This document shows positions 734 through 63,576 of a stretch of DNA of 64,000 nt, in pieces. The position numbers were made by a program, and so were the translations under genes. The DNA is from Gemmatimonadales bacterium (GTDB taxonomy: Bacteria > Gemmatimonadota > Gemmatimonadetes > Gemmatimonadales > GWC2-71-9). How positions within the stretch are numbered: position 1 is the stretch's first letter; each line of letters opens with the position of its first letter. The notes under the pieces were generated by a model. It ran no database searches. It saw only the letters and a list, made by a program, of their open reading frames with translations, and was not told the origin of the DNA. The DNA is taken from NCBI GenBank assembly GCA_052389555.1, contig JBQTHV010000015.1, positions 1,492-65,491 on the forward strand, read 5' to 3'.

Positions 734-830
734 GGCTATTGGTTATTGGCCATTGGCTATGGAAAAAGCTCTGCGGGTTAGGCCGTTCAACCAATAGCCA
801 ATAGCCAATAGCCCTCAATAGCCAATAGCC
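734..830. repeat. heptamer-periodic inverted repeat (CTATTGG arm / CCAATAG arm)
   Basis: ggctattggttattggccattggctatgg (734-762) faces ccaatagccaatagccaatagccctcaatagccaatagcc (791-830). It abuts the stop of the upstream minus-strand gene. Confidence 0.85.
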
Positions 831-831
831 T

Positions 832-2268
832 CTACGGTACCGCTGTCAGCAATCTCGCTCCCTCGAACCGCCACCCCGCAGGGTCGCGGCGCAGCAAGCC
901 GACGAACTGGCCGGTCTTCCCCCTTTGCACGCCGAAGTCCCCGCGCCAGGCGAACTGCACCGAGAATCTCGCCTCTCCGCGGTCACCAGCAAGGGTCGTA
1001 CCCTCGAGGGCCCCCAGGGTAGCGCGAGGCGAATACTCCCGAACCAGTTTCATGAACTTCTCCCGCCGCTCCAGGTCACCGGCGATGCCTTCGGGCATGA
1101 GCCGCGCGACCTCGACCGCCTGCCTGCCGTTGATCGCCTGCACCAATCGGCCCGCCGCCTGGCCCACCGCCTCTGCCGCCATGGCCCGTTCCGCCTCAGG
1201 ATCCCGCGGCGGCGGTGACGGCTCTGGAGCCGGTGGCGGCGCGGGAACCGGTGCCGGCAACGAGGCAACTGGGGGTTGTACGCTCTCCCCCACCGGGGCG
1301 CTGATCACCGGTGTCCGATTGGCTGCCTGGAACGGGTTTTCGACCGGTGAGGCCGCTCGCCCGGCGGTGTCGCGCCGGAGGCCGGTGGGAACCGCAGGCG
1401 GATTGCTCGCCATCAGGCGAAGCAGGGAATCGAGGGTCGCCTGCACCAGCGCGGTGTCCGGCCCGGTCTGCCGGGCCACCGGTACCGGGCTGTCCTCCGC
1501 CTCGATGAAGATGAAGGCGGGCACCTGCGCCACCGCCGGCTGGGTGACCAGCACCCAGGCTGCGCTGGCACCGCTGAACCCGAAGGACCCTAACACGGCC
1601 TGAAAGAGATTGCGCTTCCGCTTGCGAAGCTGGTCGCGCTGAGCCTCGTCGGCCTCTTCGAGCTCGGGCGAGTACTTGAGGGGCACCGGTCCCCCTCCCC
1701 CCGACTGCCCGGTCGGCAACGCGAGTGTCTTCCCGTAGGGACCTGCCTCGGGCAGGAGCCAGAGCGGTGGGGTGAGCTTGTAGCGGCGCTCGGCCAGCGC
1801 CGCTTTGATCAGCAGCACGACCAGGACGACGAAACTCGCGAGCGACAAGGCGACGAGGGCGATCGGCAGCGCGGGCCGCTGGCCGAGCCGGGTCTGCTCG
1901 ATCTCGTCGAGGAGCAACATGCCGTCGGCCGGCTGCTGGGGCGCCTTGCGGGCCCGCACTTTGAGCGCGCCGCCGTCTCGGGGAAGCCGACCGGTGCGAA
2001 TCAGCAATCCCTCGGGATCGCTCGCGTCGATAATGCGGTAGAATCCGGAGCGCGCGCTCGGCGAGGTCGAACGGTAGTCGACGACATCACCTTCGAGGCG
2101 GACCTCGGCGGTACCCAGTGCTTCCCGCTTTGCCTTGAGATCCGCGATCCAGGACCGCTGCTTGGTGACCGGCGCACTCTGCAGCAGAACAGCCGCGGAA
2201 AGGAGGGACCACACCGGCAACGGCATCAAGGAAAGATAATCTCCCGGCTCGGGCTGCTTGAACACCAA
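832..2268 (-). CDS. hypothetical membrane protein with Pro-rich linker and C-terminal NTF2/SnoaL-like-looking module
   Basis: 478-aa ORF with hydrophobic segments (LVALSLASFVVLVVLLI) and the tract PAPVPAPPPAPEPSPPP. No recognisable catalytic motif. Confidence 0.55.
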   Translation of the reverse strand: MVFKQPEPGDYLSLMPLPVWSLLSAAVLLQSAPVTKQRSWIADLKAKREALGTAEVRLEGDVVDYRSTSPSARSGFYRIIDASDPEGLLIRTGRLPRDGGALKVRARKAPQQPADGMLLLDEIEQTRLGQRPALPIALVALSLASFVVLVVLLIKAALAERRYKLTPPLWLLPEAGPYGKTLALPTGQSGGGGPVPLKYSPELEEADEAQRDQLRKRKRNLFQAVLGSFGFSGASAAWVLVTQPAVAQVPAFIFIEAEDSPVPVARQTGPDTALVQATLDSLLRLMASNPPAVPTGLRRDTAGRAASPVENPFQAANRTPVISAPVGESVQPPVASLPAPVPAPPPAPEPSPPPRDPEAERAMAAEAVGQAAGRLVQAINGRQAVEVARLMPEGIAGDLERREKFMKLVREYSPRATLGALEGTTLAGDRGEARFSVQFAWRGDFGVQRGKTGQFVGLLRRDPAGWRFEGARLLTAVP

Positions 2269-2322
2269 GGAGACGACGGCTAAGTTTCAGCGTTGCACTT
2301 GGTTAGCTCACTCAACCCGACG

Positions 2323-2652
2323 ATGCCAACCTACGAATATCTCTGCCCCAAAGGGCACGAGTTCGATCGCTTCCAGAAGATCACGGATTCGGCGCGAGTC
2401 CGCTGCCCCACGTGTGGCCGGATTGCATCACGGCGGATCTCGGCCGGCGCCGGTCTCATTTTCAAAGGTTCCGGATTCTACATCACCGACTACGGCAAGG
2501 ACGGGAAAGGTCCCCGGAAGCCGGACCCGGACTCCAAAGCTGCCGAGCCCGGCACCGACCGGTCGACCACCCCGAAGAGCGAGGCCAAGACCGGCGACGG
2601 GAAGACCGGCAAGGCCGACTCCAAGTCTCACCGCAAGAAAGCCGCCTCGTGA
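2323..2652 (+). CDS. FmdB-family zinc-ribbon putative regulatory protein
   Basis: MPTYEYLCPKGHEF...VRCPTCG is the typical FmdB N-terminus, followed by a Lys/Pro/Asp-rich tail. The internal ATG at 2323 is preferred over the track start at 2293. Confidence 0.7.
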   Translation: MPTYEYLCPKGHEFDRFQKITDSARVRCPTCGRIASRRISAGAGLIFKGSGFYITDYGKDGKGPRKPDPDSKAAEPGTDRSTTPKSEAKTGDGKTGKADSKSHRKKAAS

Positions 2653-4283: not shown

Positions 4284-4287
4284 GCCC

Positions 4288-11582: not shown

Positions 11583-13405
11583 GTGACGAGCGGGTGCTGC
11601 GCGGCGTGGGGGTGTCGCCCGGGCTGGCCTATGCGCCGGCGATCGTGCTGCACTGGCGGTTCCCCGACGTGCCGGACCGCGCGGTGGAGCCGGGCGAAGT
11701 GGAGGGGGAGGTCCGCCGCCTCCACGAGGCGGTCGCCGCCGTGGTCGCGAGCCTCAACCGGCTCCGGGAGCGGGTGCTCGAGCGCGCGGGTTATGAGGAA
11801 AGCCAGATCTTCGAAGCGCAGATCATGATGGCGCAGGACCCCGAATTCTTCGCCGGGGTCGAGCAGCTGATCCGCAAGAACAACCTGAGCGCCGAAACCG
11901 CCTACGAGTTCAAGGCGCTGGAGCTCCGCGCCGCGTGGGGCAGCGCGGGGACCCGGCTCCGGGAACGGCTCGCCGATCTCCTGGCGACCCAGATCCGGGT
12001 GCTGCGCCATCTCATGGGGGAGCGGGAGGACGAGGTCTTCGGCATCAAGGACCACCGCCACGTCATCATCGTGGCGCACGAGCTCTATCCCGGCCTGACC
12101 GTGCAGCTCGACCGGGAGCAGCTCCTCGGCCTGCTCGCCGAGGAAGGCACCCGGACCTCCCACGCCGCGATTCTGGCTCACTCCCTCGGCATTCCCTGCG
12201 TGATGGGTGCTCCCGGAGCGGCCTCCCGAATCAAGTCGGGCACTATGATCCTGCTCGATGGGACGACCGGCACCGTTCTCATCGAGCCCACCATTGCCGA
12301 GCTCGAGGCGGCCCAGGCCACCGCGGCCCGCCGCCACCGGATGGAGCTCGAGCTCGAGGCCCAGACCCGCGAGCCCGCGACCACACCCGATGGAGTCCGG
12401 ATGACGCTGATGGGGAACGTCGATCTCCCGGATGAGATCGAGGTGGCGGTACGTCATGGCGCCGAGGGGGTAGGCCTGTTGCGAACCGAGTTCCTGGTGG
12501 CCGGCCGCGCCCATCTCCCGAGCGAGGACGAGCAGTTCCAGTATTTCCGCCGGGTGGCGGCTTCCTTCGGGGATGCCCTGGTCGTTGTCCGCACCTACGA
12601 CCTCGGGGGGGACAAGTTTCCAGCGGCGTTCGCAGCGCCGCCGGAGACCAACCCGTTCCTCGGCTGGCGCTCGATTCGGGTTTGCCTCGATCAACCCGAG
12701 ATCTTCCGGCCCCAGCTGCGTGCGATTCTCCGGGCCGCGGCGGACCGCAAGCTCCAGGTGATGCTCCCGCTCGTCACCCGGGTCCATGAGGTGGTGGAGG
12801 CTCGCAAACTGCTCGCGGAGGAAGCCGAGAAGCTGCTCCAAGAAGGCGTGCGGGCCGCCCCCGGCGTACCGATGGGCGTGATGGTCGAGACGCCGGCCGC
12901 AGTGGCCATTGCCGACCGGCTCGCGGAGGTGAGCGCGTTCTTCAGCATCGGGACCAATGACCTGACCCAGTACGCGCTCGCGGTCGATCGCGGCAACGCG
13001 CATCTCGCTTCCCGCTTCACGCCGCATGATCCCGCGATCATTCGGATGCTGCGCGATGTCCTGGCCGCCGGAACCGCGAGAGGGATTCCGGTGAGCGTCT
13101 GTGGGGAGATGGCTTCTGAGCCGCTCTTCGCGCTGCTCCTCATGGGGCTCGGCTTTACCACGCTGTCGGTCGCTCCCCCGGTCCTGCCGCTCCTCAAGTG
13201 GTTGGTGCGTTCGGTGCCCGCTGAGGCGGCCCGGGAGGCCGCCGACGCCGCGATCGAGGCAGACAGTCCGGAGGAGATCAGCATGATTCTCCGTTCGACC
13301 CTGAGCCGGTACGTGGATCTGCGCCTCATGGCTCCCGAGAGCGCATTGCCGGGGCGGATCAGTGGTGCTAGGTTCACCCCAACCCGCGTGAACGGTGACC
13401 AGTGA
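11579..13405 (+). CDS. ptsI: phosphoenolpyruvate--protein phosphotransferase (Enzyme I)
   Basis: Active-site GTRTSHAAILA and PEP-utiliser C-terminal TIM-barrel motifs (FFSIGTNDLTQY). ATGA overlap with ptsH. Confidence 0.95.
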   Translation: MSDERVLRGVGVSPGLAYAPAIVLHWRFPDVPDRAVEPGEVEGEVRRLHEAVAAVVASLNRLRERVLERAGYEESQIFEAQIMMAQDPEFFAGVEQLIRKNNLSAETAYEFKALELRAAWGSAGTRLRERLADLLATQIRVLRHLMGEREDEVFGIKDHRHVIIVAHELYPGLTVQLDREQLLGLLAEEGTRTSHAAILAHSLGIPCVMGAPGAASRIKSGTMILLDGTTGTVLIEPTIAELEAAQATAARRHRMELELEAQTREPATTPDGVRMTLMGNVDLPDEIEVAVRHGAEGVGLLRTEFLVAGRAHLPSEDEQFQYFRRVAASFGDALVVVRTYDLGGDKFPAAFAAPPETNPFLGWRSIRVCLDQPEIFRPQLRAILRAAADRKLQVMLPLVTRVHEVVEARKLLAEEAEKLLQEGVRAAPGVPMGVMVETPAAVAIADRLAEVSAFFSIGTNDLTQYALAVDRGNAHLASRFTPHDPAIIRMLRDVLAAGTARGIPVSVCGEMASEPLFALLLMGLGFTTLSVAPPVLPLLKWLVRSVPAEAAREAADAAIEADSPEEISMILRSTLSRYVDLRLMAPESALPGRISGARFTPTRVNGDQ

Positions 13406-13529
13406 ACCGGGGTAAGCGGGCCGCCTCACGATAGCAGCGCACGCCGCCCAAGCTCCCTGGCTCGCCGTTTGCATTCACACTTCGCCGTTCGGCTTTCACC
13501 CTTCACTTTTCACTTTCCAATCCTTCACT
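13388..13529. repeat. heptad-periodic repeat pair (GTGAACN x3 ... TTCNNNN x7)
   Basis: gtgaacg gtgacca gtgaacc (13388-13408) overlaps the ptsI stop. ttcacac ttcgccg ttcggct ttcaccc ttcactt ttcactt tccaatc cttcact (13474-13529) ends just before metK. Confidence 0.6.
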
Positions 13530-13533
13530 GTTG

Positions 13534-14777: not shown

Positions 14778-15269
14778 ATGGTTCGGATGCGGGTGGCCCA
14801 CCTGGGGCTGGATCGTGCGACCAACACCCCGGTCGTCGTGCTTCGCGAGGAAGACGGCGAGCGGACCCTCCCCATCTGGATCGGGGCTTCCGAGGCCAAC
14901 GCCATCGCGCTGGAACTCCAGGGTGTCAAGCCCGAGCGGCCGCTCACCCACGACTTGATGAAGCGACTCGTATCCGGGCTGGGTGGCGAGCTTCGCCGGG
15001 TGCTGATCGCCGGGCTGCGCGAGAATACCTACCTCGCGCAGCTGCTGATCTATCGGGGGACCGAGGTGTTCGAGGTTGATGCCCGGCCGTCGGATAGCAT
15101 TGCCCTCGCGCTCCGGATGAACGCGCCGATCTTTTCCGAAGAAGATTTGCTCGACCGCACCGCACGCAGCTCGGACGCCTCCCCTCAGCAGCCCGGCGGC
15201 GATCCCGAGGCGCTGAAGCGGTTCCTCGAAGGACTCGATCCCCAGGATCTCGGACGATTCCAACCCTAG
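14778..15269 (+). CDS. bifunctional nuclease family protein (DUF151/BFN)
   Basis: VVVLREEDGERTLPIWIGASEANAIA..RPLTHDL is the family signature. Confidence 0.8.
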   Translation: MVRMRVAHLGLDRATNTPVVVLREEDGERTLPIWIGASEANAIALELQGVKPERPLTHDLMKRLVSGLGGELRRVLIAGLRENTYLAQLLIYRGTEVFEVDARPSDSIALALRMNAPIFSEEDLLDRTARSSDASPQQPGGDPEALKRFLEGLDPQDLGRFQP

Positions 15270-15333
15270 CAAGACGGCAGGGCGGCAGGACGGCAGGACG
15301 GCTCGGCCGCTGGACGGTTGGACGGCTGGTTCT
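15270..15333. repeat. octamer tandem repeat (CAGGACGG-like, 8 units)
   Basis: caagacgg cagggcgg caggacgg caggacgg ctcggccg ctggacgg ttggacgg ctggttct. It starts directly after the stop at 15267-15269. Confidence 0.8.
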
Positions 15334-18460: not shown

Positions 18461-19311
18461 TTCGAGGTCCGAGGGGCGAGGGGCGAGGGGCGACGCCACC
18501 GGCCGAGCCGGAGACCGCCAGCGAGGTGGGTGTGCTCCAGGCTCGGGATCTCGTTGTTCGCTACCCGGGTGCCGCCCTCGCGGCGCTCACCCAAGTGGAT
18601 CTCCATCTCGACGCCGGCGAGCTCCTGGCGGTGGTCGGGCCGAATGGCTCGGGCAAGACGACGCTGCTCCGGGCGTTGCTTGGCCTTGTCTCGCTTCAAG
18701 CCGGCGAGGTCCGCATTGCCGGCACACCCCTCCCATCCTGGCGCCGCGCCGCCCTCGCCCGGTTTGTCGCGCTGGTGCCGCAGCGAGAAGAGACGCCGTT
18801 CTCCTGGCGAGTAGACGAGATGGTAGGCTTCGGCCGGTACGCTCGCCTGGGACCGCTGAGCCCCATGGGCCCCGAAGACCAGGCCGCCGTGGACCGCGCG
18901 CTTTTGCGTGCCGACCTCGCCGAGTTTCGCCACCGGCGAGTCGAGACGCTCTCCGGTGGGGAATGGCAGCGGGTGCGGATTGCGCGGGCGCTCGCGCAGG
19001 AGCCGCAGCTCCTGTGTCTCGATGAGCCAACGGTCTCCCTCGATCTCGGTCACGAGATGGCGTTGTTCGAGCTGGTGCGTCGCCTGGTCGCGGACGGTCT
19101 TGCGGCGCTCGTGGTGACCCATCACTTGAACCTCGCCGCGCGGTTTGCGGATCGGATGCTTCTGCTCGACGCGGGACGCACCGCGGCCGTCGGCACTCCG
19201 TCCGAGGTGATGGAAGCGGAGCGACTTTCCCGGATCTTCCGGTGGCCGGTCACGATCATTCCCCTGGAGGACGGAACCCCGCAGTTTGTGCCGCGTCGCG
19301 ATTATTCTTGA
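18457..19311 (+). CDS. btuD: ABC-transporter ATP-binding protein (BtuD/FepC-like)
   Basis: Walker A GPNGSGKTT, signature LSGGEWQR and Walker B LLCLDEP. The N-terminal about 25 aa are encoded by a GAGGGGC repeat, so the true start may be further downstream. Confidence 0.9.
   Translation: MIRGPRGEGRGATPPAEPETASEVGVLQARDLVVRYPGAALAALTQVDLHLDAGELLAVVGPNGSGKTTLLRALLGLVSLQAGEVRIAGTPLPSWRRAALARFVALVPQREETPFSWRVDEMVGFGRYARLGPLSPMGPEDQAAVDRALLRADLAEFRHRRVETLSGGEWQRVRIARALAQEPQLLCLDEPTVSLDLGHEMALFELVRRLVADGLAALVVTHHLNLAARFADRMLLLDAGRTAAVGTPSEVMEAERLSRIFRWPVTIIPLEDGTPQFVPRRDYS
18464..18491. repeat. heptamer tandem repeat GAGGNNC (4 units)
   Basis: gaggtcc gaggggc gaggggc gaggggc at the btuC/btuD junction. 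Same unit family as 40724-40758. Confidence 0.65.
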
Positions 19312-22976: not shown

Positions 22977-23028
22977 GCCGAACGGACATGGGGATCTGCC
23001 GGGATGGCTGGGTTGGGAGGCATGGAAT

Positions 23029-23135
23029 GAGCTATCAGCTAACAGCTATCAGCTATCAGCTAGCCGAACTGTACCGTCCAAGGGACGAGCTGATAGCTGA
23101 AGACTGATAGCTGATAGCTGTTAGCTGATAGCTCG
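23029..23135. repeat. heptamer-periodic hairpin (AGCTATC / CTGATAG arms)
   Basis: 23029-23058 is the exact reverse complement of 23105-23134, a 30-bp stem. It lies 16 nt upstream of the clpB ATG. Confidence 0.9.
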
Positions 23136-23150
23136 TAGAGAGAACCGACC

Positions 23151-39624: not shown

Positions 39625-39636
39625 TGGGGCAGGAGC

Positions 39637-39792
39637 AGCTATCAGCTATCAGTCTTCAGTCTCAAGTCTTCAGTCATGAGTCAGCGGTAGGCAACTTGAG
39701 ACTGACGACTGACGACTGATAGCCGATAGCCGATAGCCGATAGCCGATAGCTGATACCTGATAGCGAAGAGGTATCTGATAGCTGATAGCTG
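39637..39792. repeat. compound heptamer-periodic hairpin array (AGCTATC/AGTCTTC arm vs CTGACGA/CCGATAG/CTGATAG arm)
   Basis: About 22 heptads in near-continuous 7-nt register between tRNA-Ser(GGA) and the msrP ATG (39802). Confidence 0.9.
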
Positions 39793-39801
39793 GGAGTCAC
39801 C

Positions 39802-40725: not shown

Positions 40726-40758
40726 GGTCCGAGGTGCGAGGGGCGAGGTCCGAGATAG
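40724..40758. repeat. heptamer tandem repeat GAGNNNN (5 units)
   Basis: gaggtcc gaggtgc gaggggc gaggtcc gagatag. It starts inside the msrP stop codon. Confidence 0.6.
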
Positions 40759-40774: not shown

Positions 40775-41416
40775 GTGACCGAAGCCCAGGCCATCCGTAG
40801 AGTGGTGAAGCCCGTCCTGTGGGCCGTGGGCGTAACCCCGCTGGCCTGGCAGGTGTGGGCGTTCTTCACGGGGCACCTCGAGGCCGAGCCGGTGAAGGGG
40901 ATGCAGCATTTCACCGGCCGCACCGCGCTGGTCATTCTGTTCATCACCCTCTCGGTGACCCCGCTGCGCCGGCTGACCGGCTGGAACCCGATCATCAAGG
41001 TACGGCGCCTGATCGGGTTGTTCGCCTTCTTCTACGCGCTGGTCCACTTCGGGATCTTCCTGGTATTCGACCTGGAGCTGTCGTTCGGGGACCTAACCCG
41101 CGAGGTGGTCAAGCGGCCCTGGATCACCGTGGGGTTCACCGCCCTGGTCCTGCTGGCCGTCCTCGCGGCGACCTCGCCCCAGGCCATGGTCCGCAAGCTG
41201 GGCAAGCGCTGGCGCACCCTGCACCGGCTGATCTATCCGGCTGCCGCGCTCGGAGTGCTGCACTTCCTCTGGGCCCAGAAGAAGGACATCCGGCTCCCCG
41301 TGATCTACGCGATCGTGCTGGCCGCGATTCTCGCGCTCCGCCTGGTTCCGGTGGCGTGGAGGCAGCCTCGCTTCCGGCCTTCGCCCAAGCCGAAACCAAT
41401 AGCCAATAGCCAATAG
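40775..41416 (+). CDS. msrQ: MsrQ (YedZ) heme-binding membrane subunit
   Basis: Ferric-reductase-like 6-TM pattern with conserved His (LVHFGIF, LHFLW). Sits downstream of msrP. Confidence 0.85.
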   Translation: MTEAQAIRRVVKPVLWAVGVTPLAWQVWAFFTGHLEAEPVKGMQHFTGRTALVILFITLSVTPLRRLTGWNPIIKVRRLIGLFAFFYALVHFGIFLVFDLELSFGDLTREVVKRPWITVGFTALVLLAVLAATSPQAMVRKLGKRWRTLHRLIYPAAALGVLHFLWAQKKDIRLPVIYAIVLAAILALRLVPVAWRQPRFRPSPKPKPIANSQ

Positions 41417-41437
41417 CCAATAGCCGATAGCCGGTTG
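41396..41437. repeat. heptamer tandem repeat CCAATAG x4 then CCGATAG, CCGGTTG
   Basis: It overlaps the last 6 codons and the TAG stop of msrQ. Same unit as 791-830. Confidence 0.8.
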
Positions 41438-45280: not shown

Positions 45281-45331
45281 CGCGGCCCGCAAGCCTCAAC
45301 TGAGACGGGGGCCACGACGAAAGAGGAAGCC

Positions 45332-46745: not shown

Positions 46746-47681
46746 ATGAAGGACTCGAAGTCACACGACTTGTCCGACATCGAGAGTTTGCTGGCCGGCC
46801 GCCAGCAGTTGACCGAGTGGCTCGAGCGCCTGGAGGAGGCTGGGTCGCGAGCGCCCGAATCGGTGCGTACCAAGGTACGGGCCGACTACCAGGGACGTCT
46901 GGCCCAGGTGGTGAACCAGCTCGGCGCTCATCGGGACGTGATCAACACGACCCTCGAGGGGCTGCGAGCGCAATCTCAAGAAACCAACCAGCTTCGGCGG
47001 GAGCAGCTCGAAGTCCGGGCTGAAGCAGAGCTTCGCCACGCAGTCGGCGAATACAGCGACGATCAGTGGCAACTGATTGATCTGGAGACGACCGGGCGAA
47101 TCAATGGCCTGGAGCACGAGCTGGAGAAGCTCGCCGAGGAAATCCGGCGGCTCGCTGAAGTTTATGCGCTGATCGCGCCGCCGCAGCCGGAGCAGCGCCC
47201 CGCTGCCTCCGTCGAGCGCCGGACGCCGAGCGGCGACTTACCGAGCGCGGAGCGCCGAGCGCCGAGTGTCGAGCCGCGAGTCTCCGAACCCGAGTCGCCG
47301 CCGGTCCCCACCGGTCCCCGACTGGTGAGCGACGATGGGCTGACTCCGGCTCCGCGTCCCGAGGCGCCACGATTTGTGCCTCGTGGGGCTGTCCCGGCAG
47401 CTCGGGAGCCCGCTCAGCCACGCGCCCCGCGAGTTACCCCGATGCCGGCGCCTGCCAGTCAGGGCGCCGACGACGAGCTCGCGTTTCTGCGCTCGGTGAA
47501 TGTCGAAATCGAAGCGTCCCCTCACCCGGCCGCCACGAATCAGGAGGGGAGCGGGCAGGAAACGGAAGTGCGGAAGGGCCCCACGGCCGCCAAGACCCTG
47601 AAGTGCGGCGAGTGCGGTTCGCTCAACCGGCCGACCGAATGGTACTGCGAGCGGTGTGGGGCGGAGCTGGCCGCGGTCTGA
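46746..47681 (+). CDS. coiled-coil / low-complexity protein with C-terminal zinc ribbon
   Basis: N-terminal heptad-rich helices, a Pro/Arg/Glu-rich middle and C-terminal KCGECGSLNRPTEWYCERCG. Confidence 0.7.
   Translation: MKDSKSHDLSDIESLLAGRQQLTEWLERLEEAGSRAPESVRTKVRADYQGRLAQVVNQLGAHRDVINTTLEGLRAQSQETNQLRREQLEVRAEAELRHAVGEYSDDQWQLIDLETTGRINGLEHELEKLAEEIRRLAEVYALIAPPQPEQRPAASVERRTPSGDLPSAERRAPSVEPRVSEPESPPVPTGPRLVSDDGLTPAPRPEAPRFVPRGAVPAAREPAQPRAPRVTPMPAPASQGADDELAFLRSVNVEIEASPHPAATNQEGSGQETEVRKGPTAAKTLKCGECGSLNRPTEWYCERCGAELAAV
47212..47296. repeat. heptamer-periodic CCGAGNN tract inside the coding region
   Basis: tcgagcg ccggacg ccgagcg ... ccgagcg ccgagtg tcgagcc gcgagtc. Encodes SVERRTPSGDLPSAERRAPSVEPRVSEPES. 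Confidence 0.6.
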
Positions 47682-47689
47682 CTTGAAGG

Positions 47690-47735
47690 GGAGGTAGTAA
47701 GCAGGAGGTAGTAAGCAGGAGGTAGTGAGCAGGGA
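47690..47735. repeat. 14-mer tandem repeat (GGAGGTAGTAAGCA x3), left arm of a split hairpin
   Basis: 47704-47735 pairs 30/32 with 48203-48234. Confidence 0.85.
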
Positions 47736-47823
47736 CCTCGACTGCGATGATCTGGACCAGCTAGAGGGTTCTTTGCGTTAGAACGGTTACTCATCCGCCC
47801 TGGCCGCGCAGTAGCTTGGCTGC

Positions 47824-48191
47824 ATGGCCACCCTGATTCGAACCTACCAAGATTTAATCGTCTGGCAAAAATCGATGGATCTTGCCCTGATAGTGCTCAG
47901 GTTGGCTGCACGCTTGAAGGGTGCGCGCTCTTATGTGCTTGCTGATCAGCTCGAGCGCTCGGCCATCTCCATCCCTTCAAATCTGGCGGAAGGTCATGGA
48001 CGAAGATCTCGTGCCGAGTTTCGGCGATATGTCGCCGTTGCGAATGCTTCCCTGCGGGAGTTGGAAACCCAGCTGAGCTCCTGAGGCGGTACTGCCCGCG
48101 GGTGGCCCAAAGAGTCAGTCGGATTCTCGTGGGCACTGATGAGATAGGACGGATGCTCAATACCCTGCATCACCGCCTGGGGACTTCATAA
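47824..48191 (+). pseudogene. four-helix-bundle protein gene (23S rRNA intervening-sequence protein family), frameshifted
   Basis: Frame 1 gives YQDLIVWQKSMDL...IPSNLAEGHGR...ASLRELETQL, then a stop. The family C-terminus (..ILVGTDEIGRMLNTLHHRL) continues in frame 3 to TAA at 48189-48191. Confidence 0.8.
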
Positions 48192-48202
48192 CGCCCTCGA
48201 AG

Positions 48203-48234
48203 TCCCTTCTCACTACCTCCTGCTTACTAACTCC
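48203..48234. repeat. right arm of the split GGAGGTAGTAAGCA hairpin
   Basis: tcccttctcactacctcctgcttactaactcc is the reverse complement of the left arm with 2 mismatches. Confidence 0.85.
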
Positions 48235-48240
48235 TAGTCG

Positions 48241-48489: not shown

Positions 48490-48508
48490 TTGGCAGCCTT
48501 TCGGTTGG

Positions 48509-48598
48509 GAGCTAACAGCTATCAGCTATCAGCTATCAGTCGTCAGTCATCAGTTCTACTGCCAAGCTGATAGCTGATAGCTCATAGCTGATAGCTAC
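48509..48598. repeat. heptamer-periodic hairpin (AGCTATC / CTGATAG arms)
   Basis: gagctaacagctatcagctatcagctatcagtcgtcagtcatcag ... agctgatagctgatagctcatagctgatagctac. It lies 20 nt upstream of the rpsT start. Confidence 0.9.
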
Positions 48599-48715
48599 TA
48601 ACGGCGGCTAAGTTTAGTCACCGCAATACGTTGACGCAAGGGAACCGGCCCCCTTAAACTTGAGTCTCTCCCCACTCGGGATCCCGACCTGACCGACTTC
48701 ATTCTCGCCCTCCCG

Positions 48716-52523: not shown

Positions 52524-52527
52524 AGCA

Positions 52528-56724: not shown

Positions 56725-58709
56725 AATCGCTTCTCGTTCTGACCCTTCTGCAACCGGCCCAGGGTGGGCTCGAGTCGGACATTGCCGCGCTCATCGCGCG
56801 AGTGCCCCCGCCGGCGCGGCGGGGCGCCCCGTCGGTCGTGAATGTGGTCTCGAGCGATCGGGTCTTCGCGGGCGATCAACTGAACGTCCTCACCGCCGCG
56901 TGGTTACCGCGCTCGCTCCGGCTTAGGCTTCGCCAGGCCCCCACCCTGACGCCACCGGCGCTTACCGGCGTATGGTCCATTCCGCGCCGTCCCATTTCGG
57001 GTGCCGTCGCGGTCTACGAAGGGGAGACCGAGAGCTATGACCTCTTTGTCGGCGCGCAGACGGTGTATCCCCTCAACCCCGGTCTGCTGACGATTCCACC
57101 GGCTCGCCTGAGCTGGGTGCAGCCGCGGGCCGGAGGAGAAGAGCGATCCCAGGCGGTCGAGAGCCCATCGCTGCTGGTGCAGGTGCGCGAGCTGCCGGCT
57201 GCCGGTCAACCGTCGCAGCTGCCCGGACCACCTCCCATCGCACGCGACCTGCGCATTGAGTATCGGCTGGGCGCTGGAGCGGGCCGCGCCGGCGCCGTCC
57301 TTCCGGTTGAGGTTGCGCTGAGCGGGGCCGGCGGCATTCCGCTGTGGCCCGCTCCCGAATTGAGCTGGCCCTCCGGCGTGCGCGCCTACGATCAGGGAGC
57401 GGAAACCGAGTTCCAGCCTCGCGGCTCCCGGCTCTTCGGGACTCGCCGGTTTCGATTCTCTCTGGTGCCCGACTCGGCCGGCGGGCTGTCACTGCCGCCG
57501 ATCGAGTATCCCCACTTCGATCCGGTGACCGCCGGCTACCGGACCGCGCGCACCCCGGGCATCGTGGTTCCCATTCTGGAAGCAGCACCGGTCACCGATC
57601 AGCGATTTCCTCTGCCGTTGCTGGTCCCGAGGTCTCCGACGCTCGCGGAGCGGCTGCTTCGAATGCCGGGTTATGTGCTCTGGATCCTGGCGCTCCTGCC
57701 GGTGGGCTTGATCGGCGTGGTCGCGGCGTGGAAACGCCGGCGCCGCCAGCCCAAGCCCGCGGCGCTGCCGAGCCCTGCCGAGGAACTCGAATTGCTGTTC
57801 CAGTCGCTCCCTGCGCCGCGCGCCGGTGCGAGGCGGAGCGCGCTGATTGCCGCGCTGCGGGACGCCGGACTCGAGCGCGCCGCCGCCGGCCGGCTGGTCC
57901 ATCTGCATCTTGCCGTTGAGGCGTCCCGGTACGGTCCACCCGACGTGACTGCCGGTGCGTCTCCCCGGGAGCCGGAGATCGCCGCCGCGCTCGACCAGGT
58001 GCCTGGTCGGATCCGCGGTGCCAAGGTTGGCGCGCTTCTGGTCCTGGGCTGGCTCGGGGCCCTGGCCCGGCCCGGTGCGGCGCAAACCGGTCTCGACTTG
58101 TACCAGCGCCAGCAGTATGCGGCGGCAGCCGGGGCCCTGCGCGCGGAAGCGGAGCGCGACCCTAACCCGGCGCGCTGGTACAATCTCGCCGCGGCGGAGT
58201 ATCTGAGCCGGCGCGACGCGCATGCCGCGGCGGCGTTGCTGCGCGCGCGGGCCCAGGCGCCGCGGAATCCCCGCATGGCCGCGTTGTGGAACGAGCTGGC
58301 CCGCGCCTATCCCGCCTTGCGCGCCGCCGAGCCATCTTCTCCGCTTCCGCTCTCGGCCGATGAGTGGTTTGCGCTGGCGATCCTCGGTGCCTGGGTCGGG
58401 TTCGCCTGGTATCTCTGGCCGGGACCCCGCCTCAAGCTTTGGGTGCTGGCCCTGGTTCTCGCTCTGGGGCTGGCGCTCTTGGGTGCGATCCGGCAGGCCG
58501 AAGAGCCGGGCGAGCGCGCGGTGCTGATGGGCGGGGCGAGTCTCCGGGTTTCGCCCCATGGCCTCGCGCCGGCGGTGAGCAGCATTCCGGCCTTCAGCGT
58601 CGTGGAGCCGCTCCGAGCCCAAGGCGAGTGGTGGCTGGTACGCTCTTCGGGCGGTGAGGGTTGGATACCCTCGGATATCCTCGCACTGTCTTCAGGCGGT
58701 AGTAAGTAG
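56721..58709 (+). CDS. BatD-like protein fused to TPR and SH3-like C-terminus
   Basis: BatD-type N-terminal Ig-like region, TM helices, TPR-like segment and C-terminal GEWWLVRSSGGEGWIPSDIL. Confidence 0.7.
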   Translation: MKSLLVLTLLQPAQGGLESDIAALIARVPPPARRGAPSVVNVVSSDRVFAGDQLNVLTAAWLPRSLRLRLRQAPTLTPPALTGVWSIPRRPISGAVAVYEGETESYDLFVGAQTVYPLNPGLLTIPPARLSWVQPRAGGEERSQAVESPSLLVQVRELPAAGQPSQLPGPPPIARDLRIEYRLGAGAGRAGAVLPVEVALSGAGGIPLWPAPELSWPSGVRAYDQGAETEFQPRGSRLFGTRRFRFSLVPDSAGGLSLPPIEYPHFDPVTAGYRTARTPGIVVPILEAAPVTDQRFPLPLLVPRSPTLAERLLRMPGYVLWILALLPVGLIGVVAAWKRRRRQPKPAALPSPAEELELLFQSLPAPRAGARRSALIAALRDAGLERAAAGRLVHLHLAVEASRYGPPDVTAGASPREPEIAAALDQVPGRIRGAKVGALLVLGWLGALARPGAAQTGLDLYQRQQYAAAAGALRAEAERDPNPARWYNLAAAEYLSRRDAHAAAALLRARAQAPRNPRMAALWNELARAYPALRAAEPSSPLPLSADEWFALAILGAWVGFAWYLWPGPRLKLWVLALVLALGLALLGAIRQAEEPGERAVLMGGASLRVSPHGLAPAVSSIPAFSVVEPLRAQGEWWLVRSSGGEGWIPSDILALSSGGSK

Positions 58710-58742
58710 GAGGCTATCTCCGGTTCATCTAGATTCCTCGCA

Positions 58743-60431
58743 ATGCGCATAACAATCCTGCCGGATTCAGTCGCAAACCAGATCGCTGCCGGCGAAGTCG
58801 TGGAGCGGCCTGCCTCGGTCGTGAAAGAGCTGATCGAGAACGCGCTCGATGCCGGCGCGCGGCACCTGCGAGTCGAGCTGGAGCAGGGCGGCAAGACCCT
58901 CATCGCGGTGAGCGATGACGGGTGCGGCATGGATCCTCAGGACGCGGTCCTGGCCCTCGATCGACACGCCACGAGCAAGATCGCGCGCGCGAGCGACCTG
59001 ATCGGCGTGCGCACGTTCGGGTTTCGAGGCGAAGCCCTTCCCGCTATCGCGTCGGTCTCGCGCTTCACGATGACGACTTCCGACGGCGGTGAAGCGACCG
59101 AGGTCATGGTGACCGGAGGCCGCCTGGAGCGGGTGGAGCGGGCGGTGCGCCAGCGCGGAACCACCGTGATGGTGCGGGGGCTCTTCTTCAACACGCCGGC
59201 CCGCCGCAAGTTCCTGCGCTCGGTGCCGTCCGAGAACCGCGCGGCGACCGAAGCGGTGACGGTGCTGGCCCTGGCCCATCCCGAAACGGGATTCGAGCTC
59301 ATCGTTGACGGGGCCACCCGGCTCGCGGTTCCCCCGGATCAGGATGAGCCCGCACGGCTCGTCGGGGCGTGGGGCGACCACCTGGCCGGCACCCTGGTAC
59401 CGGTACGCTATGCCGCCGGTGCGGTGCAGGTCGCGGGTTATGTGCAGCGGCCGGGCGACGCCGCACCCACCGGCCGGCGGGTCCAACTCTTCGTCAACGG
59501 CCGGCCCTTCCGCGATCCGTTCCTGATCCGTGCGGCCGAAGCGGGTTATCGCTCCGCCATTCACCCGGGGGACCGGCCCAGTCTCCTCCTGCATCTCTCG
59601 GTGGATCCGTCCGAGGTGGATGTGAACGTTCACCCTGCCAAACTCGAAGTCCGGTTCCGGGACCGGATCGCGGTCGAGCGCACCGTCGAGGAAGCGGTGC
59701 GGGATGCGCTGGGCCAACTCGAAGCGGCGGTGCCGGTGGGTGAGTGGAGACCGGCTCCTCGGGAATCGGGAATCGGGAGTCGGGAATCGGGAACGGAAGG
59801 GGCGACCCTCGACTTCCCGACTCCCGACCCCCGACTCCCGACTTCCGATGAGAGCCGCTTCGAGCCTCGGGTGACCCAGCTTTTCTCGAGCTATCTCACC
59901 TTCGAGGGCCCCGAGGGCCTCGTCATCGTGGATCAGCACTCCGCCCACGAGCGGGTGCTCTTCGAAGAGGTGATGCGGCACCTCACTAACGGGGGGATCG
60001 CCGCGAGCCAGCGGCTCTTGTTTCCCGAAACCGTGGAGCTCACCGACGAAGAGCTCGAGGCGGTCGAGCGGCATCGCGAGGCGCTGGAAGCGGTCGGGTA
60101 CCAGGTCGCGCCGTTCGGCGGCCGGACCGTCGTGATCCACGCGGTGCCGGCACCGCACCCGCGGTTCGAGGCGGTCGCGTGTTTTCGCGAGCTGGTCGCC
60201 GATCTCGCGCGGGGCCGCTTCGGGGGATGGGCCAACCGGCTCGAGCGGTTCGCGGCGACCTACGCGTGCCGGGCCGCGGTAAAGGCCGGGACGCCGCTGT
60301 CCGATTCGGAGATGCGGGCGCTGCTCTTGCGTCTCTTCGAAACCAAGTTGCCGCCGCACGACGTGCACGGCCGGAGCACCATCGTCCAACTTCCCCGGGT
60401 GGAGCTGGAGCGCCGGTTTGGGCGACAATAA
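58743..60431 (+). CDS. mutL: DNA mismatch repair protein MutL
   Basis: GHKL ATPase motifs AAGEVVERPASVVKELIENALDAG, DDGCGM and GFRGEAL, plus the C-terminal dimerisation domain. Confidence 0.95.
   Translation: MRITILPDSVANQIAAGEVVERPASVVKELIENALDAGARHLRVELEQGGKTLIAVSDDGCGMDPQDAVLALDRHATSKIARASDLIGVRTFGFRGEALPAIASVSRFTMTTSDGGEATEVMVTGGRLERVERAVRQRGTTVMVRGLFFNTPARRKFLRSVPSENRAATEAVTVLALAHPETGFELIVDGATRLAVPPDQDEPARLVGAWGDHLAGTLVPVRYAAGAVQVAGYVQRPGDAAPTGRRVQLFVNGRPFRDPFLIRAAEAGYRSAIHPGDRPSLLLHLSVDPSEVDVNVHPAKLEVRFRDRIAVERTVEEAVRDALGQLEAAVPVGEWRPAPRESGIGSRESGTEGATLDFPTPDPRLPTSDESRFEPRVTQLFSSYLTFEGPEGLVIVDQHSAHERVLFEEVMRHLTNGGIAASQRLLFPETVELTDEELEAVERHREALEAVGYQVAPFGGRTVVIHAVPAPHPRFEAVACFRELVADLARGRFGGWANRLERFAATYACRAAVKAGTPLSDSEMRALLLRLFETKLPPHDVHGRSTIVQLPRVELERRFGRQ
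59759..59848. repeat. heptamer-periodic hairpin (CGGGAAT arm / TTCCCGA arm) in frame inside mutL
   Basis: tcgggaatcgggaatcgggagtcgggaatcgggaac ... cttcccgactcccgacccccgactcccgacttccga. Encodes RESGIGSRESGTEGATLDFPTPDPRLPTSD. Confidence 0.85.
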
Positions 60432-61347
60432 GGTCCCGATCATCGTGGGACCGACCGCCATCGGCAAGACCGCCGTGGCGCTGGCGCTCGCGGCCCACCT
60501 GCCCATCGAGGTCATCTCGGCCGACTCGCGCCAGATCTATCGCCGCCTCGACATCGGCACCGCGAAACCCACTCGCCGTGAGCGCCAACGGGTGCCGCAC
60601 CATGGGATCGATCTGGTCGAGCCGGGCACGCGGTACAGCGCGGGTCACTTCGCGCGCGAAGCAGCGGGATGGATCGCCGAAGCAAGACGCCGGGGCCGGT
60701 TGCCGGTCGTGGTTGGGGGTACCGGACTCTATATTCGCGCACTGGCTGAAGGTCTGTTCGAGGAACCCCCGCTCGACCCCGACCGACGCCGGGCGCTGGA
60801 ACACTGGATCGGAAGCCTGGAGCCGGCCGATCTCGTGCGCTGGGCGGGCCGGCTCGATCCCGGTTTCGCGGGTGGGGGGCGCCAGCGTGCCGTGCGGGCG
60901 ATCGAGATCGCGCTGCTCACGGGCCGACCCCTCTCGGGATGGCACCGGCGGACTCCGGCCGCGGCGACACTCACGCCGTGGTACCTGCGGCTCGCCGCGC
61001 CGCGAGCGGTGCTGGCGCAGCGCATCCGCACCCGCACAGAGGAGATGTTGCGCCGCGGGTTAATCGAGGAAGTCGCTGCGGTGCTGAGCGAAGGGCTTCC
61101 GGCTGACGCGCCGGGCCTCACCGGCGTCGGGATTCGCCAGGCGGTCGACTATCTCCACGGCCGGCTCTCCCGCGAGCGGGTGGCCGATGCGATCGTCACC
61201 GCGACGCGCCAGTACGCCAAGCGGCAGGAAACCTGGTTTCGGCACCAGCTTCGCGGTGCCAGGCTGACGCTCGACGCGACTCAACCGGTCGAGGATCTCG
61301 CCCGGTCTATTGCGGATGCATGGAAGGAGGTAGTAAGCAGGAGGTAG
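60418..61347 (+). CDS. miaA: tRNA dimethylallyltransferase
   Basis: P-loop GPTAIGKT plus SADSRQIYR..DIGTAKP. TTG start overlaps the mutL 3' end. Confidence 0.93.
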   Translation: MGDNKVPIIVGPTAIGKTAVALALAAHLPIEVISADSRQIYRRLDIGTAKPTRRERQRVPHHGIDLVEPGTRYSAGHFAREAAGWIAEARRRGRLPVVVGGTGLYIRALAEGLFEEPPLDPDRRRALEHWIGSLEPADLVRWAGRLDPGFAGGGRQRAVRAIEIALLTGRPLSGWHRRTPAAATLTPWYLRLAAPRAVLAQRIRTRTEEMLRRGLIEEVAAVLSEGLPADAPGLTGVGIRQAVDYLHGRLSRERVADAIVTATRQYAKRQETWFRHQLRGARLTLDATQPVEDLARSIADAWKEVVSRR

Positions 61348-61435
61348 TAAGTAGGGAAGTCGAGGAGCCAGCCCGCCCTCGTGAGCAAGCTGGGCTCGGT
61401 TTGTCCCTACTCACTACCTCCTGCTTACTACCTCC
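61326..61435. repeat. hairpin of GGAGGTAGTAAGCA units (32-bp stem, 1 mismatch, 46-nt loop)
   Basis: 61326-61357 ggaggtagtaagcaggaggtagtaagtaggga pairs with 61404-61435 tcccctactcactacctcctgcttactacctcc-type arm. The left arm supplies the miaA stop. Confidence 0.9.
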
Positions 61436-61447
61436 TAAAGAGACGAT

Positions 61448-62572
61448 ATGAAGATCGGCATAACCTGCTACCCCACCTACGGCGGCTCCGGCGCCCTCGC
61501 GACGGAGCTGGGGCTTGATCTCGCCCGGCGGGGGCACGAGGTGCACTTCATCACCTACGCGATGCCGTTCCGGCTCCGGGGCTACGTCGAGCGGGTCTAT
61601 TTCCACGAGGTGGACACCGTCTCGGGGCGCTACCCTCTCTTCGAGCATTATCCCTATACCCTCGCGCTCGCCTCCAAGCAGCACGAAGTGGCCCTGCGGG
61701 AAAAACTCGACGTGCTGCACGTGCATTACGCGATCCCCCACGCCACCACGGCCTGGATCGCGCGGCAGATGCTCGGTGCGCAGCATCCGATCAAAGTCAT
61801 TACGACGCTACATGGCACCGACATTACCCTGGTGGGGCAGGAAGAGAGCTTTCACGCGATTACCAAGTTCTCGATCGAGCAGTCCGATGCGGTTACCGCG
61901 GTCTCCGAGTTCCTCAAGGAGGAGACCCTCCGCGCTTTCGGCTGCCGCGAGTGCCGGATCGCGGTGATTCCCAACTTCGTGAAGCTCGACGAGTACTTCC
62001 CGGCGCCCGCCAAGGAAAGGGACGGCCTGTGCCCCGCCGGGTGCAAGCTGCTGATCCATGTCTCCAACTTCCGCGAGGTGAAGCGGGTTAGGGACGTGGT
62101 GCGGATCTTCGCGCGGGTGCGCCGGACCATGCCCTCGGTCCTGCTCATGATCGGTGACGGCCCCGAGCGTGCCGACGCCGAGCGGGAGAGCCGCGAGCTC
62201 GGCGTGGACGGCGACGTCCGCTTCCTGGGACGGATCGATACCGTGGCGCCGCTGCTCCAGCAGAGCGATCTCTTCCTGCTGCCGAGTCAGAGCGAGTCGT
62301 TCGGGCTCGCCGCGCTCGAGGCCATGGCGTGTGGCGTTCCGGTGGTGGCGAGCCGGGCCGGCGGCCTGCCGGAGCTGATTCTCGACGGTGAAACGGGCGT
62401 CCTCGAGCCGCCCGGTTCCGTTGAAGCGATGGCGCGCCGTGCCGCCGAGCTGCTCCGCGACACGGCGCGCCACCGCGCGATGAGCGAAGCGGCGGCGGCG
62501 CGCGCGTTGGCATTTGCGGCGGACCGCATCGTTCCCCGCTACGAGGCCCTCTATCAACAGGTGGCGGGTTGA
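61448..62572 (+). CDS. bshA: N-acetyl-alpha-D-glucosaminyl L-malate synthase (bacillithiol biosynthesis GT4)
   Basis: N-terminus [37 protein letters not shown] closely matches the BshA hallmark. GT4 E-x7-E region [16 protein letters not shown]. Confidence 0.72.
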
Positions 62573-63450
62573 CCCTGACCGGCTGGGATGGCTTGCTCAT
62601 CGGGCTGGTCCAGGGTCTTACCGAGTTCCTTCCGATTTCGAGCTCGGGCCACCTGGTGCTCGCGGAACGGCTGGTGGGCTACGAGCCACGCGGGGTGTTC
62701 GTCGAGGTGGCGGTTCACGTCGCCACGCTGCTCTCGGTGGTCATCGCCTATCGGGGAAGGATTGCCGAGTTGCTCGGCGATCTGCTTACCAGGAGGCGCG
62801 GCGGGTGGCGCTACATCGGGCTCCTGCTCCTCGCCTCCGTTCCGGCCGGGATAGCCGGCATCCTGGGGCGTGACTACTTCGAGCGGACCTTCCATTCGCT
62901 GCCCGCGTTAGGCTGGAACTTCCTGATCACGGCCGGCTTGCTCTGGAGTACCCGCTATATCCCTCGGCGCTCGGCGCTCGGCGCTCGTGGCTCGGCGCTT
63001 GGCGCTCGAGAGCCGAGGGCCGAGAACCGAGAGCCGAGTACCGACGTGCCGAGTGCCGAGAGCCGAGCGCCGAGCCACGTTCCGACCATCCGCCAAGCGC
63101 TCATCATCGGCCTCGCCCAAGCCGTCGCCATTCTGCCCGGGGTATCCCGCTCGGGTGCCACCATCACCGCCGGGTTATGGACCGGACTTGCTCCAGCCCA
63201 GGCCGCCGAGTTCTCGTTCCTCATGTCGATCATCGTGATCGCGGGATCGGGCTTGCTCGAAGCCCGCCACCTGGTCCAGGGCACCCAGGACGTGTCGTTC
63301 GGACTCGCCGTCGCATTCGTCGCCGCATTGCTCGCCGGGATCGCCGCGATCAAGCTGCTCGTGCTGCTCCTTCGGCGCGGCCGGTTTCACGTCTTCGCGC
63401 CGTATGTCGCAGTGCTCGGCGTGCTGTGCTTGCTGTGGTTTGCGTTCTGA
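62569..63450 (+). CDS. uppP: undecaprenyl-diphosphate phosphatase
   Basis: [14 protein letters not shown] and [12 protein letters not shown] motifs. Contains a repeat-derived insertion of about 38 aa. Confidence 0.9.
62963..63076. repeat. heptamer-periodic hairpin (CTCGGCG arm / CCGAGNN arm, centre CTCGAG) in frame inside uppP
   Basis: ctcggcg x3 ctcgtgg ctcggcg cttggcg ctcgag agccgag ggccgag aaccgag agccgag ... Encodes [37 protein letters not shown]. Confidence 0.85.
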
Positions 63451-63576
63451 AGGGAGTAGGGAATAGGGAGTAGGGAATCGGTATGGACAGCGAAGATCGG
63501 GTATTTGGGGATCTGGGTTCGGCTGCCGGGAGTGCGCCCGTCAGCCCTACCCCCTACTCCCTATCCCCTACTCCCT
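63451..63576. repeat. heptamer-periodic hairpin (GGGAGTA/GGGAATA arm vs CCCTACT/CCCTATC arm)
   Basis: 63451-63478 pairs 25/28 with 63549-63576. The loop of about 66 nt contains the candidate birA ATG. Confidence 0.85.

Follow-up and report, generated by a model that had tools for sequence, protein, structure and literature searches.

What are the arrays of 7-nucleotide units that punctuate a 64,000-nucleotide stretch of DNA from a Gemmatimonadales bacterium (contig JBQTHV010000015.1; hereafter, the window)? [quoted passage not shown] The interpretation towards which we lean is that these arrays represent palindromic insertion elements and belong in one class with the cyanobacterial STRR and the stems of 23S rRNA intervening sequences (IVS), and that the stems, when transcribed, would be substrates of RNase III. 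The most informative clue to the nature of the elements is one that the sequence-only reading missed, namely the link to the IVS: one element encloses a gene for a four-helix-bundle protein of the S23p family (PF05635), and genes of this family lie within similar arrays in other phyla.

Abundance and placement of heptad arrays

Repeats in the window were called by Tandem Repeats Finder (TRF), with 30 dinucleotide-preserving shuffles as the control. The window gave 27 rows of period 7, as compared with a shuffle mean of 3.2 (approximately 8-fold enrichment), and five rows of period 14, as compared with 0.9, which bears out the earlier observation. Nearly all of the longest inverted repeats in the window are heptad-periodic. 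We recognized 18 array loci (E01 to E18, Table 1) that fall into at least eight unrelated unit families, with dozens more families in relatives; the loci listed in the sequence-only reading were all recovered, by TRF and by reading, at the same positions or within a few bases of them. Nine loci are strong hairpins (E01, E05, E06, E07, E13, E15, E16, E17 and E18), with arms of 22-33 nt, complementarity of 81-100% and RNA minimum free energies of -46 to -85 kcal/mol (z -5.6 to -13.5 against shuffles). The arms of E12 are also a complementary pair, with 467 nt between them, and E02 is weakly hairpin-like. The other seven (E03, E04, E08, E09, E10, E11 and E14) are one-sided direct arrays or remnants. 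The claim that an array usually faces its complement thus holds for some 10-11 of the 18 loci and fails for the seven or so one-sided or remnant arrays, with E02 a weak case.

Intergenic sequence makes up 8.4% of the window, yet it holds 61% of the array bases, and 11 of the 24 intergenic gaps of at least 40 nt contain an array. Both tRNA-Ser genes directly adjoin an element, intact open reading frames (ORFs) read through arrays in MutL and UppP, and the ORF at 46746-47681 contains E11, so that the placement noted from the letters alone (gene boundaries, the flanks of both tRNA-Ser genes, in frame within ORFs) was correct. An Rfam search of the window found no rRNA; the elements lie between or inside protein-coding genes or beside tRNA genes. 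The window has a G+C content of 67%, and nearly all of its genes are on the plus strand. Two gaps, 28574-29803 (1230 nt) and 26248-26529 (282 nt), contain no gene according to a simple caller based on G+C at the third codon position, and no heptad arrays.

We considered the possibility that the arrays are assembly artefacts and rejected it, because many independent assemblies show such structures, finished plasmids of cultured strains among them; that the arrays keep reading frames open further disfavours it.

Relationships among copies

The arms of E12 and E16 align across their 14-nt units, and the alignment continues into a common non-periodic inner stem (AGGGA..TCGAG). The outer AGCTATC units are common to E05, E07 and E13, and E07 and E13 both switch to AGTCNTC units towards the loop. 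Units AGCTATC and AGGGAGT are also present in another high-G+C genome (L090), and AGGGAGT, the unit of E18, flanks four-helix-bundle genes in that genome and in Nostoc edaphicum. A metagenome scan for the 20-mer GGTAGTAAGCAGGAGGTAGT, taken from the arms of E12 and E16, gave four matches, all of them unrelated low-G+C coding sequence. The shared inner stems, the shared order of units and the recurrence of units across genomes indicate that local slippage alone is insufficient, and the earlier view of a dispersed system rather than isolated slippage is upheld by them.

These results bear on the simplest alternative, that the arrays are ordinary slipped-strand simple sequence repeats (SSRs) that arose locally and independently, with hairpins formed by chance or by local inverted duplication and with no shared origin or function. 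Heptanucleotides are the commonest class of long SSR in many bacteria, high-G+C ones included, among them Burkholderia, Xanthomonas and Actinobacteria (Mrazek 2007, to the extent that it is related in PMC4679880), and to that extent the assertion that such arrays had no description in a high-G+C non-cyanobacterial genome does not stand. Two further observations would suit a local origin: the units at one orthologous slot differ between genomes, and seven arrays of the window are one-sided. However, it is difficult to reconcile with mirrored variant units in arms that are up to 100% complementary and with identical units that recur across genomes and phyla, and it is already weakened by the non-periodic inner stems common to unlinked loci and by the tight association with one gene family described below. 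We, therefore, consider a purely local origin unlikely.

Filled and empty sites in relatives

The MiaA protein of the window (60418-61347) matched solely Gemmatimonadales/Gemmatimonadota genomes, at no more than 78% identity. The relatives compared here are 80 syntenic loci (L001-L080) that amount to 1.16 Mb (1.23 Mb with the window), and the gene order 662-aa protein, MutL, MiaA, glycosyltransferase (GT4), UppP and lipoate/biotin-ligase-like protein is kept in all 80. One of these loci (L015, JBLMWC010000103.1) comes from a metagenome-assembled genome (MAG) labelled 'Bacillota bacterium', yet it is fully syntenic with Gemmatimonadales, its MiaA is 71% identical and its G+C content is 72%; the contig is probably mis-binned.

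Period 7 is the commonest tandem period in the relatives' 1.16 Mb (97 rows, as compared with 72 for period 12). The density of arrays is uneven, from 0 to 0.8 per kb, and that of the window, 0.39 per kb, is approximately five times the average. The 1.23 Mb contain 129 inverted repeats whose arms reach 18 nt or more; 43 of these have period-7 arms, and no other period accounts for more than seven. Heptad hairpins (period 7 or 14) are intergenic in 40 of 46 cases, with the 5' arm starting a few nucleotides after the upstream stop codon. The non-heptad inverted repeats lie within ORFs in 58 of 83 cases, and those are probably due to chance.

The junction between miaA and the GT4 gene, which E16 occupies in the window, is filled in some relatives and empty in others. 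In approximately half of them the two genes overlap by 4 nt or are spaced by less than 30 nt; in about 16, the junction is a 65-195-nt gap that consists wholly of a heptad (occasionally octad) hairpin, which typically contributes the stop codon of miaA and either reaches the start codon of the GT4 gene or stops just short of it. The unit varies by lineage (GGTGAGC, GTGACCA, GAGCTGG, GGTCGTG, AGCTATG, GGGTACT and others), and two loci (L069 and L074) have AGGGAGT/AGGTAGT units that resemble those of the window. Gaps of approximately 550-690 nt at this junction were suspected of being cargo-carrying elements, a candidate that was rejected when they proved to contain an ankyrin-repeat gene. This gene, of approximately 170 aa, lies between miaA and the GT4 gene in L018, L034, L036, L041, L045, L049, L054, L058, L060 and L072, and in this subclade heptad arrays occur at one or both of the new junctions.

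Elements also occupy coding sequence. By protein alignment, the UppP of the window alone has a 32-residue in-frame insertion, at E17, which is missing in the eight closest relatives. A heptad hairpin codes for the MutL linker in the window as well as in L011, L034, L054, L060 and L072, with a different unit in each, and the arms within ORFs are free of stop codons, with the sole exception of an arm in L011. Presence/absence polymorphism among relatives, an issue raised by the sequence-only reading, is thus found at the miaA/GT4 junction, in UppP and in the MutL linker. The filled and empty sites, together with the in-frame inserts, identify these as insertion elements filtered by selection and not as conserved regulatory stems.

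One could envision that the stems are nevertheless selected by the host, as terminators or as barriers to 3'-exonucleases that set the stability of operon segments, in the manner of the repetitive extragenic palindromic (REP) sequences of E. coli. Their position directly after stop codons or before start codons in co-directional operons would be suitable for such a role, and in E06 the stem is followed by a T-run. The other eight strong hairpins have no T-run, however, so that the combination of stem and U-tract that characterizes an intrinsic terminator is seen in one of nine; some elements lie inside ORFs; and orthologous junctions are often empty, with the 4-nt gene overlap, which implies that the stems are dispensable. 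A host-selected function is, in our judgement, very improbable.

Alternatively, the elements might be non-autonomous transposons of the type known as miniature inverted-repeat transposable elements (MITEs), with the arms as terminal inverted repeats moved by a transposase encoded elsewhere, for example that of the IS1595 copy at 44306-45280 of the window. Presence or absence at orthologous sites, dispersed families with the same unit and in-frame insertion into ORFs, as with the Rickettsia palindromic elements (RPE), are all what such transposons would give. The arms, however, change in length by whole units, their termini are not conserved and the units are wholly different between families. 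Of the terminal inverted repeats and the target-site duplication that mark a MITE, inverted arms are present, and no duplication was recognizable at the UppP site, where the divergence of the relatives blurs the junction. The Pfam scan of the window ORFs detected no gene for a REP-associated tyrosine transposase (RAYT), the window has no transposase apart from the IS1595 copy, and the gene carried by E12 is not a transposase. We think that mobilization of this kind is unlikely.

The four-helix-bundle gene and its flanking arrays

The 467-nt loop of E12 encodes a four-helix-bundle protein that matches TIGR02436 (E 2e-23, over profile positions 1-72 of 109) and is a member of the Pfam family PF05635, '23S rRNA intervening sequence protein'. 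Its closest homologues are encoded on high-G+C contigs in at least five other contexts, and all of these are bracketed by inverted 7-, 8- or 14-nt arrays. One of the contexts (L091, 10001-10393) is the syntenic slot (rpsT / zinc-ribbon / M50 peptidase), where, as compared with the window, the gene is inverted relative to its neighbours; recombination between inverted arms would yield such an orientation.

A wider sample comprised a Gemmatirosa megaplasmid, 17 cyanobacterial plasmid loci, Azospirillum, Riemerella, a Bacteroidales metagenomic contig and a Eubacterium MAG. Altogether, 28 contexts from five phyla were scored for a TRF array of 7 or 8 nt (or a multiple) within 200 nt of the gene. 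Of these, 27 had an array upstream and 24 had one downstream; in 24 there were arrays on both sides. The arms were inverted in 23, direct in two and undecided in three. Among 400 random genes of the Gemmatimonadales loci, which served as a control, 63 had an array upstream, 56 downstream and 13 on both sides. The typical layout is a purine-rich array, a leader of approximately 15-100 nt, the ORF, and a stop codon that abuts the complementary pyrimidine-rich array. The Azospirillum copy is located inside a 23S rRNA gene (Rfam LSU match) and is a genuine IVS, with heptad arms.

Units of 8 nt instead of 7 nt surround the gene in Gemmatirosa (L094, 9844-10388), a Gemmatimonadaceae MAG, Tolypothrix and Oscillatoria (L093, L118 and L120). 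Except for the 8-mer arrays at this gene, 120 kb of the Gemmatirosa plasmid is nearly devoid of heptad arrays, which implies that a high density of arrays is not a phylum-wide trait. The matches in the plasmid collection were mostly from Nostocales; the phage collection gave no homologue at E 1e-6. Full-text literature searches, the coverage of which does not extend to several key older papers, returned no general link between the four-helix-bundle gene and heptamer arrays, and the embedding of PF05635 genes in 7/8-nt arrays across phyla is, as far as checked, undescribed in its general form.

In plasmids of Anabaena sp. 90, Picosynechococcus and Pseudanabaena (L097, L102 and L105), the heptamer-bracketed gene lies between cas6 and cas4 or between cmr2 and cmr3. 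PF05635 genes have been noticed in cas operons and proposed to be cas-associated (PMC3936711); that status may reflect insertion into operon junctions and not a function in CRISPR.

Polarity of the stems

In 30 of the 39 scorable intergenic hairpins (p approximately 0.001), the 5' position is taken by the purine-rich (G-rich) arm, as it is in the inverted four-helix-bundle contexts that were read; the polarity of a palindrome is identical on both strands. A stop codon is present in 28 of 40 intergenic 5' arms, as compared with 16 of 40 3' arms. Because the purine-rich units carry TAG, TGA or TAA, an ORF that enters an element from either side ends within a few codons. Selection for a 5' arm that supplies stop codons would be a simple explanation of the polarity.

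Table 1. Positions and features of the array elements in the window
Element	Position	Strand	Description	Basis
E01	730..834		GGCTATT / CCAATAG heptad hairpin; occupies the 123-nt gap between two minus-strand genes	arms 734-756/791-813, 21/23 paired; dG -45.8, z -6.7
E02	13385..13530		weak GTGAAC / TTCAC arrays in the gap from a ptsI-like gene to metK	TRF 13494-13516; z -1.0
E03	15269..15333	+	one-sided array of the 8-mer GCAGGACG; the intergenic gap measures 80 nt	TRF; without complementary partner
E04	18464..18493	+	one-sided CGAGGGG x3.4 at the FecCD/ABC-ATPase gene junction	TRF
E05	23025..23138		AGCTATC hairpin in the selB-clpB gap; ends 16 nt 5' of the clpB start codon	31-nt arms 100% complementary, variant unit AGCTAAC mirrored as GTTAGCT; dG -70.6, z -13.5
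E06	32040..32134		GGGAATC-type hairpin immediately 5' of tRNA-Ser(CGA); T-run after the stem	
E07	39634..39796		composite AGCTATC / AGTCTTC hairpin plus CCGATAG array; tRNA-Ser(GGA) to msrP-like gene	
E08	39918..39953	+	8-mer array GGGCGGTT within the N-terminal region of the msrP-like ORF	TRF
E09	40724..40758	+	one-sided GAGGTCC array in the msrP/msrQ gap	TRF
E10	41396..41437	+	one-sided CCAATAG x5.3 at the msrQ 3' end	TRF
E11	47212..47296	+	direct array of CCGAGCG type; lies in frame within the Pro-rich linker of a 311-aa zinc-ribbon protein	TRF and ORF translation
E12	47686..48240	+	cargo-carrying; left arm 47690-47735, (GGAGGTAGTAAGCA)x3, then leader, four-helix-bundle gene and complementary right arm 48203-48234	
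Four-helix-bundle gene in E12	47824..48180	+	PF05635 / TIGR02436, S23p family; frameshift near 48080	
E13	48500..48606		AGCTATC / AGTCGTC hairpin, rpsT to M50 peptidase gene	dG -54.9, z -9.9
E14	58696..58713	+	one-unit remnant (GGTAGTAAG family) at the 3' end of the gene that precedes mutL	alignment with E12/E16 arms
E15	59755..59852	+	TCGGGAA hairpin, translated in frame in the disordered MutL linker	
E16	61322..61440		ORF-less hairpin of the E12 family; contributes the stop codon of miaA; 11 nt separate its end from the glycosyltransferase start	33-nt arms 97% complementary; z -11.4; filled and empty orthologous sites
E17	62960..63080	+	CTCGGCG hairpin in frame in uppP, +32 residues	z -7.2; protein alignment and DNA comparison
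E18	63448..63580		AGGGAGT/AGGGAAT hairpin, begins directly after the uppP stop codon	25-nt arms 96% complementary; z -5.6

Discussion

The elements are best filed as heptad palindromes of the IVS/STRR class in Gemmatimonadales that are abundant at operon junctions and tolerated in frame. We propose a plan in which two complementary arms of 7-nt (sometimes 8- or 14-nt) units would surround a loop that is short in most copies and that carries the S23p/PF05635 gene in the 'full' form, E12. The arms would lengthen and turn over by slippage of units and might be kept matched either by copying from arm to arm or by selection. Recombination between arms with the same unit could spread or exchange copies between loci, move or invert the cargo and homogenize the copies. 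Purifying selection would then confine the survivors to gene boundaries and disordered linkers and would favour the polarity in which a purine-rich 5' arm supplies stop codons. As to the transcribed stems, the best guide is the IVS of Coxiella, a 23S rRNA stem-loop that has an S23p ORF and a terminal stem of 28 bp. Its stem and leader contain tandem heptameric repeats, GACAGAT is present in two to three tandem copies, the number varying among strains, and the stem is cut internally by RNase III (PMC4990558). The existence of these repeats shows that the earlier contention that nothing comparable had been described outside cyanobacteria was overstated. By analogy, RNase III would cleave the 22-33-bp stems of the window and would so isolate the insert from the host transcript or excise it, which would account for its tolerance in operon junctions, as in rRNA.

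Several observations weigh against this proposal. The cleavage step is carried over from the Coxiella IVS. A count of stem mismatches on the sense strand in 46 heptad hairpins of the window and L001-L080, in which related genomes are included and the counts are thus not independent, gave 52 A:C/C:A as compared with 23 G:T/T:G; the excess of A:C means that the stems would pair better on the antisense strand. Selection for maximal pairing of the sense-strand RNA was rejected on this account, the sign being opposite to the prediction. No target-site duplication was recognizable at the UppP site, the junction of which is blurred by the divergence of the relatives. A tblastn search of the 80 relatives' loci (1.16 Mb) found no four-helix-bundle gene, so that most hairpins have no copy of the gene nearby, and the copy in E12 is itself frameshifted: its C-terminal 'TDEIGRMLN.LH' motif, which matches P0002, is in another frame, which makes the gene either a pseudogene or the victim of a sequencing error. 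Finally, the seven one-sided arrays of the window cannot form stems, and in the two four-helix-bundle contexts with direct arrays no stem is possible.

One-sided arrays and direct-repeat contexts would be a better fit for a protein that recognizes the repeats. A two-component system could be imagined in which a pentamer like S23p or Avd binds heptad DNA or RNA, the arrays are its cis sites, and the protein, rather than RNase III, accounts for their maintenance, spread or function. The near-universal flanking of four-helix-bundle genes by 7/8-nt arrays in five phyla is in keeping with this hypothesis, and the occurrence of both direct and inverted arrays beside the gene suits a binder of double-stranded DNA better than it suits a stem. 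Moreover, the plasmid-collection matches come mostly from Nostocales, the classical STRR lineage, and Avd of the diversity-generating retroelements is a nucleic-acid-binding homologue (PMC10053308). However, units vary so widely within one genome that a single sequence-specific binder is hard to picture, hairpins far outnumber four-helix-bundle genes, of which the relatives' 1.16 Mb contains none, the gene in the window is frameshifted, and the Coxiella protein is apparently not produced (PMC4990558). We regard such a system as doubtful.

Somewhat more plausible, although still tentative, is a broader idea, according to which the heptad arrays and the PF05635 gene might together be one ancient two-part element spread across phyla. 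The STRR, the IVS and the Gemmatimonadales hairpins would all be forms of it. Its protein would work on nucleic acid that contains the repeats, so as to propagate, maintain or process them, and hairpins that lack the ORF would be non-autonomous copies.

The preferred assignment to the IVS/STRR class can be judged by comparison with the known systems. STRR heptamers have been used for fingerprinting cyanobacteria since approximately 1990. Like the STRR, the arrays of the window are tandem 7-nt units that are dispersed and mainly intergenic, with many unit families per genome. Inverted heptamer arrays were found in plasmids of Nostoc, Calothrix and Anabaena, one of them with the unit AGGGAGT, as in the window, and the proposed STRR analogy is strengthened accordingly. 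The host, in contrast, is not a heterocystous cyanobacterium but, as placed by MiaA and synteny, a member of the Gemmatimonadota, and the canonical units of STRR1-3 (CCCCAGT, TTGGTCA and CAACAGT) do not occur in tandem in the window in any rotation. The classical description of STRR also lacks features seen in the window, namely the hairpin form, in-frame insertion into ORFs and the link to the four-helix-bundle gene. In RNase P RNA, STRR arrays are said to form a hairpin that lengthens helix P12.

E12 resembles the 23S IVS of Leptospira, Coxiella, Brucella and Xanthomonas in having a long terminal inverted-repeat stem with a PF05635 ORF in the loop, and the terminal inverted repeats of the window attain the stem length of at least about 20 bp by which an IVS is recognized. 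Unlike the IVS, the elements of the window are in mRNA junctions, beside tRNA genes and inside protein-coding genes, and the PF05635 ORF is present, frameshifted, in E12 only; the other hairpins are short-looped and ORF-less.

Other repeats share part of the anatomy. The window arrays fall under the definition of long simple sequence repeats (LSSRs), that is, tandem 5-11-nt units longer than expected by chance, a definition that does not include inverted pairing. The direct repeats of the heptamer TAACTGA that occur in Beggiatoaceae, Cyanobacteria and Bacteroidetes are likewise intergenic heptamers that end a few nucleotides before start codons and have a patchy spread across phyla; unlike the arrays of the window, they consist of one unit, almost always direct, in two to six copies, and their description reports no hairpins or associated gene and does not mention S23p or IVS (PMC4679880). 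REP sequences and the REPINs are similar to the window elements as abundant extragenic palindromes at gene boundaries within operons, but they are non-periodic, have one conserved family-wide sequence and depend on RAYT, whereas the window arms are modular repeats; the multiplicity of unrelated unit families agrees with the earlier opinion that these are not REPs or bacterial interspersed mosaic elements (BIMEs). Like the RPE, E17 in UppP and E15 in MutL are palindromes that inserted in frame without destroying genes. The RPE, however, form families of approximately 100-150 bp with a consensus sequence and are not heptad-periodic. The mycobacterial interspersed repetitive units (MIRUs) also lie between the cistrons of operons, where they overlap the neighbouring genes' stop and start codons, but they are 40-100-bp direct repeats with small ORFs and not 7-nt hairpins. 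In full-text literature searches, which did not cover several key older papers, heptad hairpins in Gemmatimonadota were not described.

The same architecture is thus present in a third, unrelated, high-G+C phylum, and the STRR, the IVS and the elements of the window are joined by one gene family and one stem design. What had been a vague repeat can be cast as testable hypotheses: cleavage by RNase III, binding by the four-helix-bundle protein and recombination between arms of the same unit. Through these elements, real proteins gain residues (UppP, MutL and the C-termini of proteins encoded by upstream genes). The elements also can mislead the inference of operons and of 'cas-associated' genes, as in the case of the four-helix-bundle genes in cas operons, and they probably fragment short-read assemblies of these genomes.

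Other features of the window

A cobalamin riboswitch (Rfam RF00174, 68 bits) at 16467-16577 lies 5' of an operon (16623-19311) for a periplasmic binding protein, FecCD and an ABC-ATPase, which is probably a B12 uptake system. The presence of selB (21132-22976) implies selenoprotein synthesis. Genes for an ATP-dependent DNA ligase and a LigD primase-polymerase domain adjoin at 29804-31662 with a 4-nt overlap, and the pair has the appearance of a split LigD that would serve non-homologous end joining. An island of low G+C content (44306-46605; approximately 60%, as compared with 67%), located between pyrC and the gene for the zinc-ribbon protein, contains the IS1595-family transposase gene and a RelA/SpoT-domain gene (45475-46605, minus strand); because the island is absent from the syntenic contexts P0012 and L091, it looks like a recent insertion.

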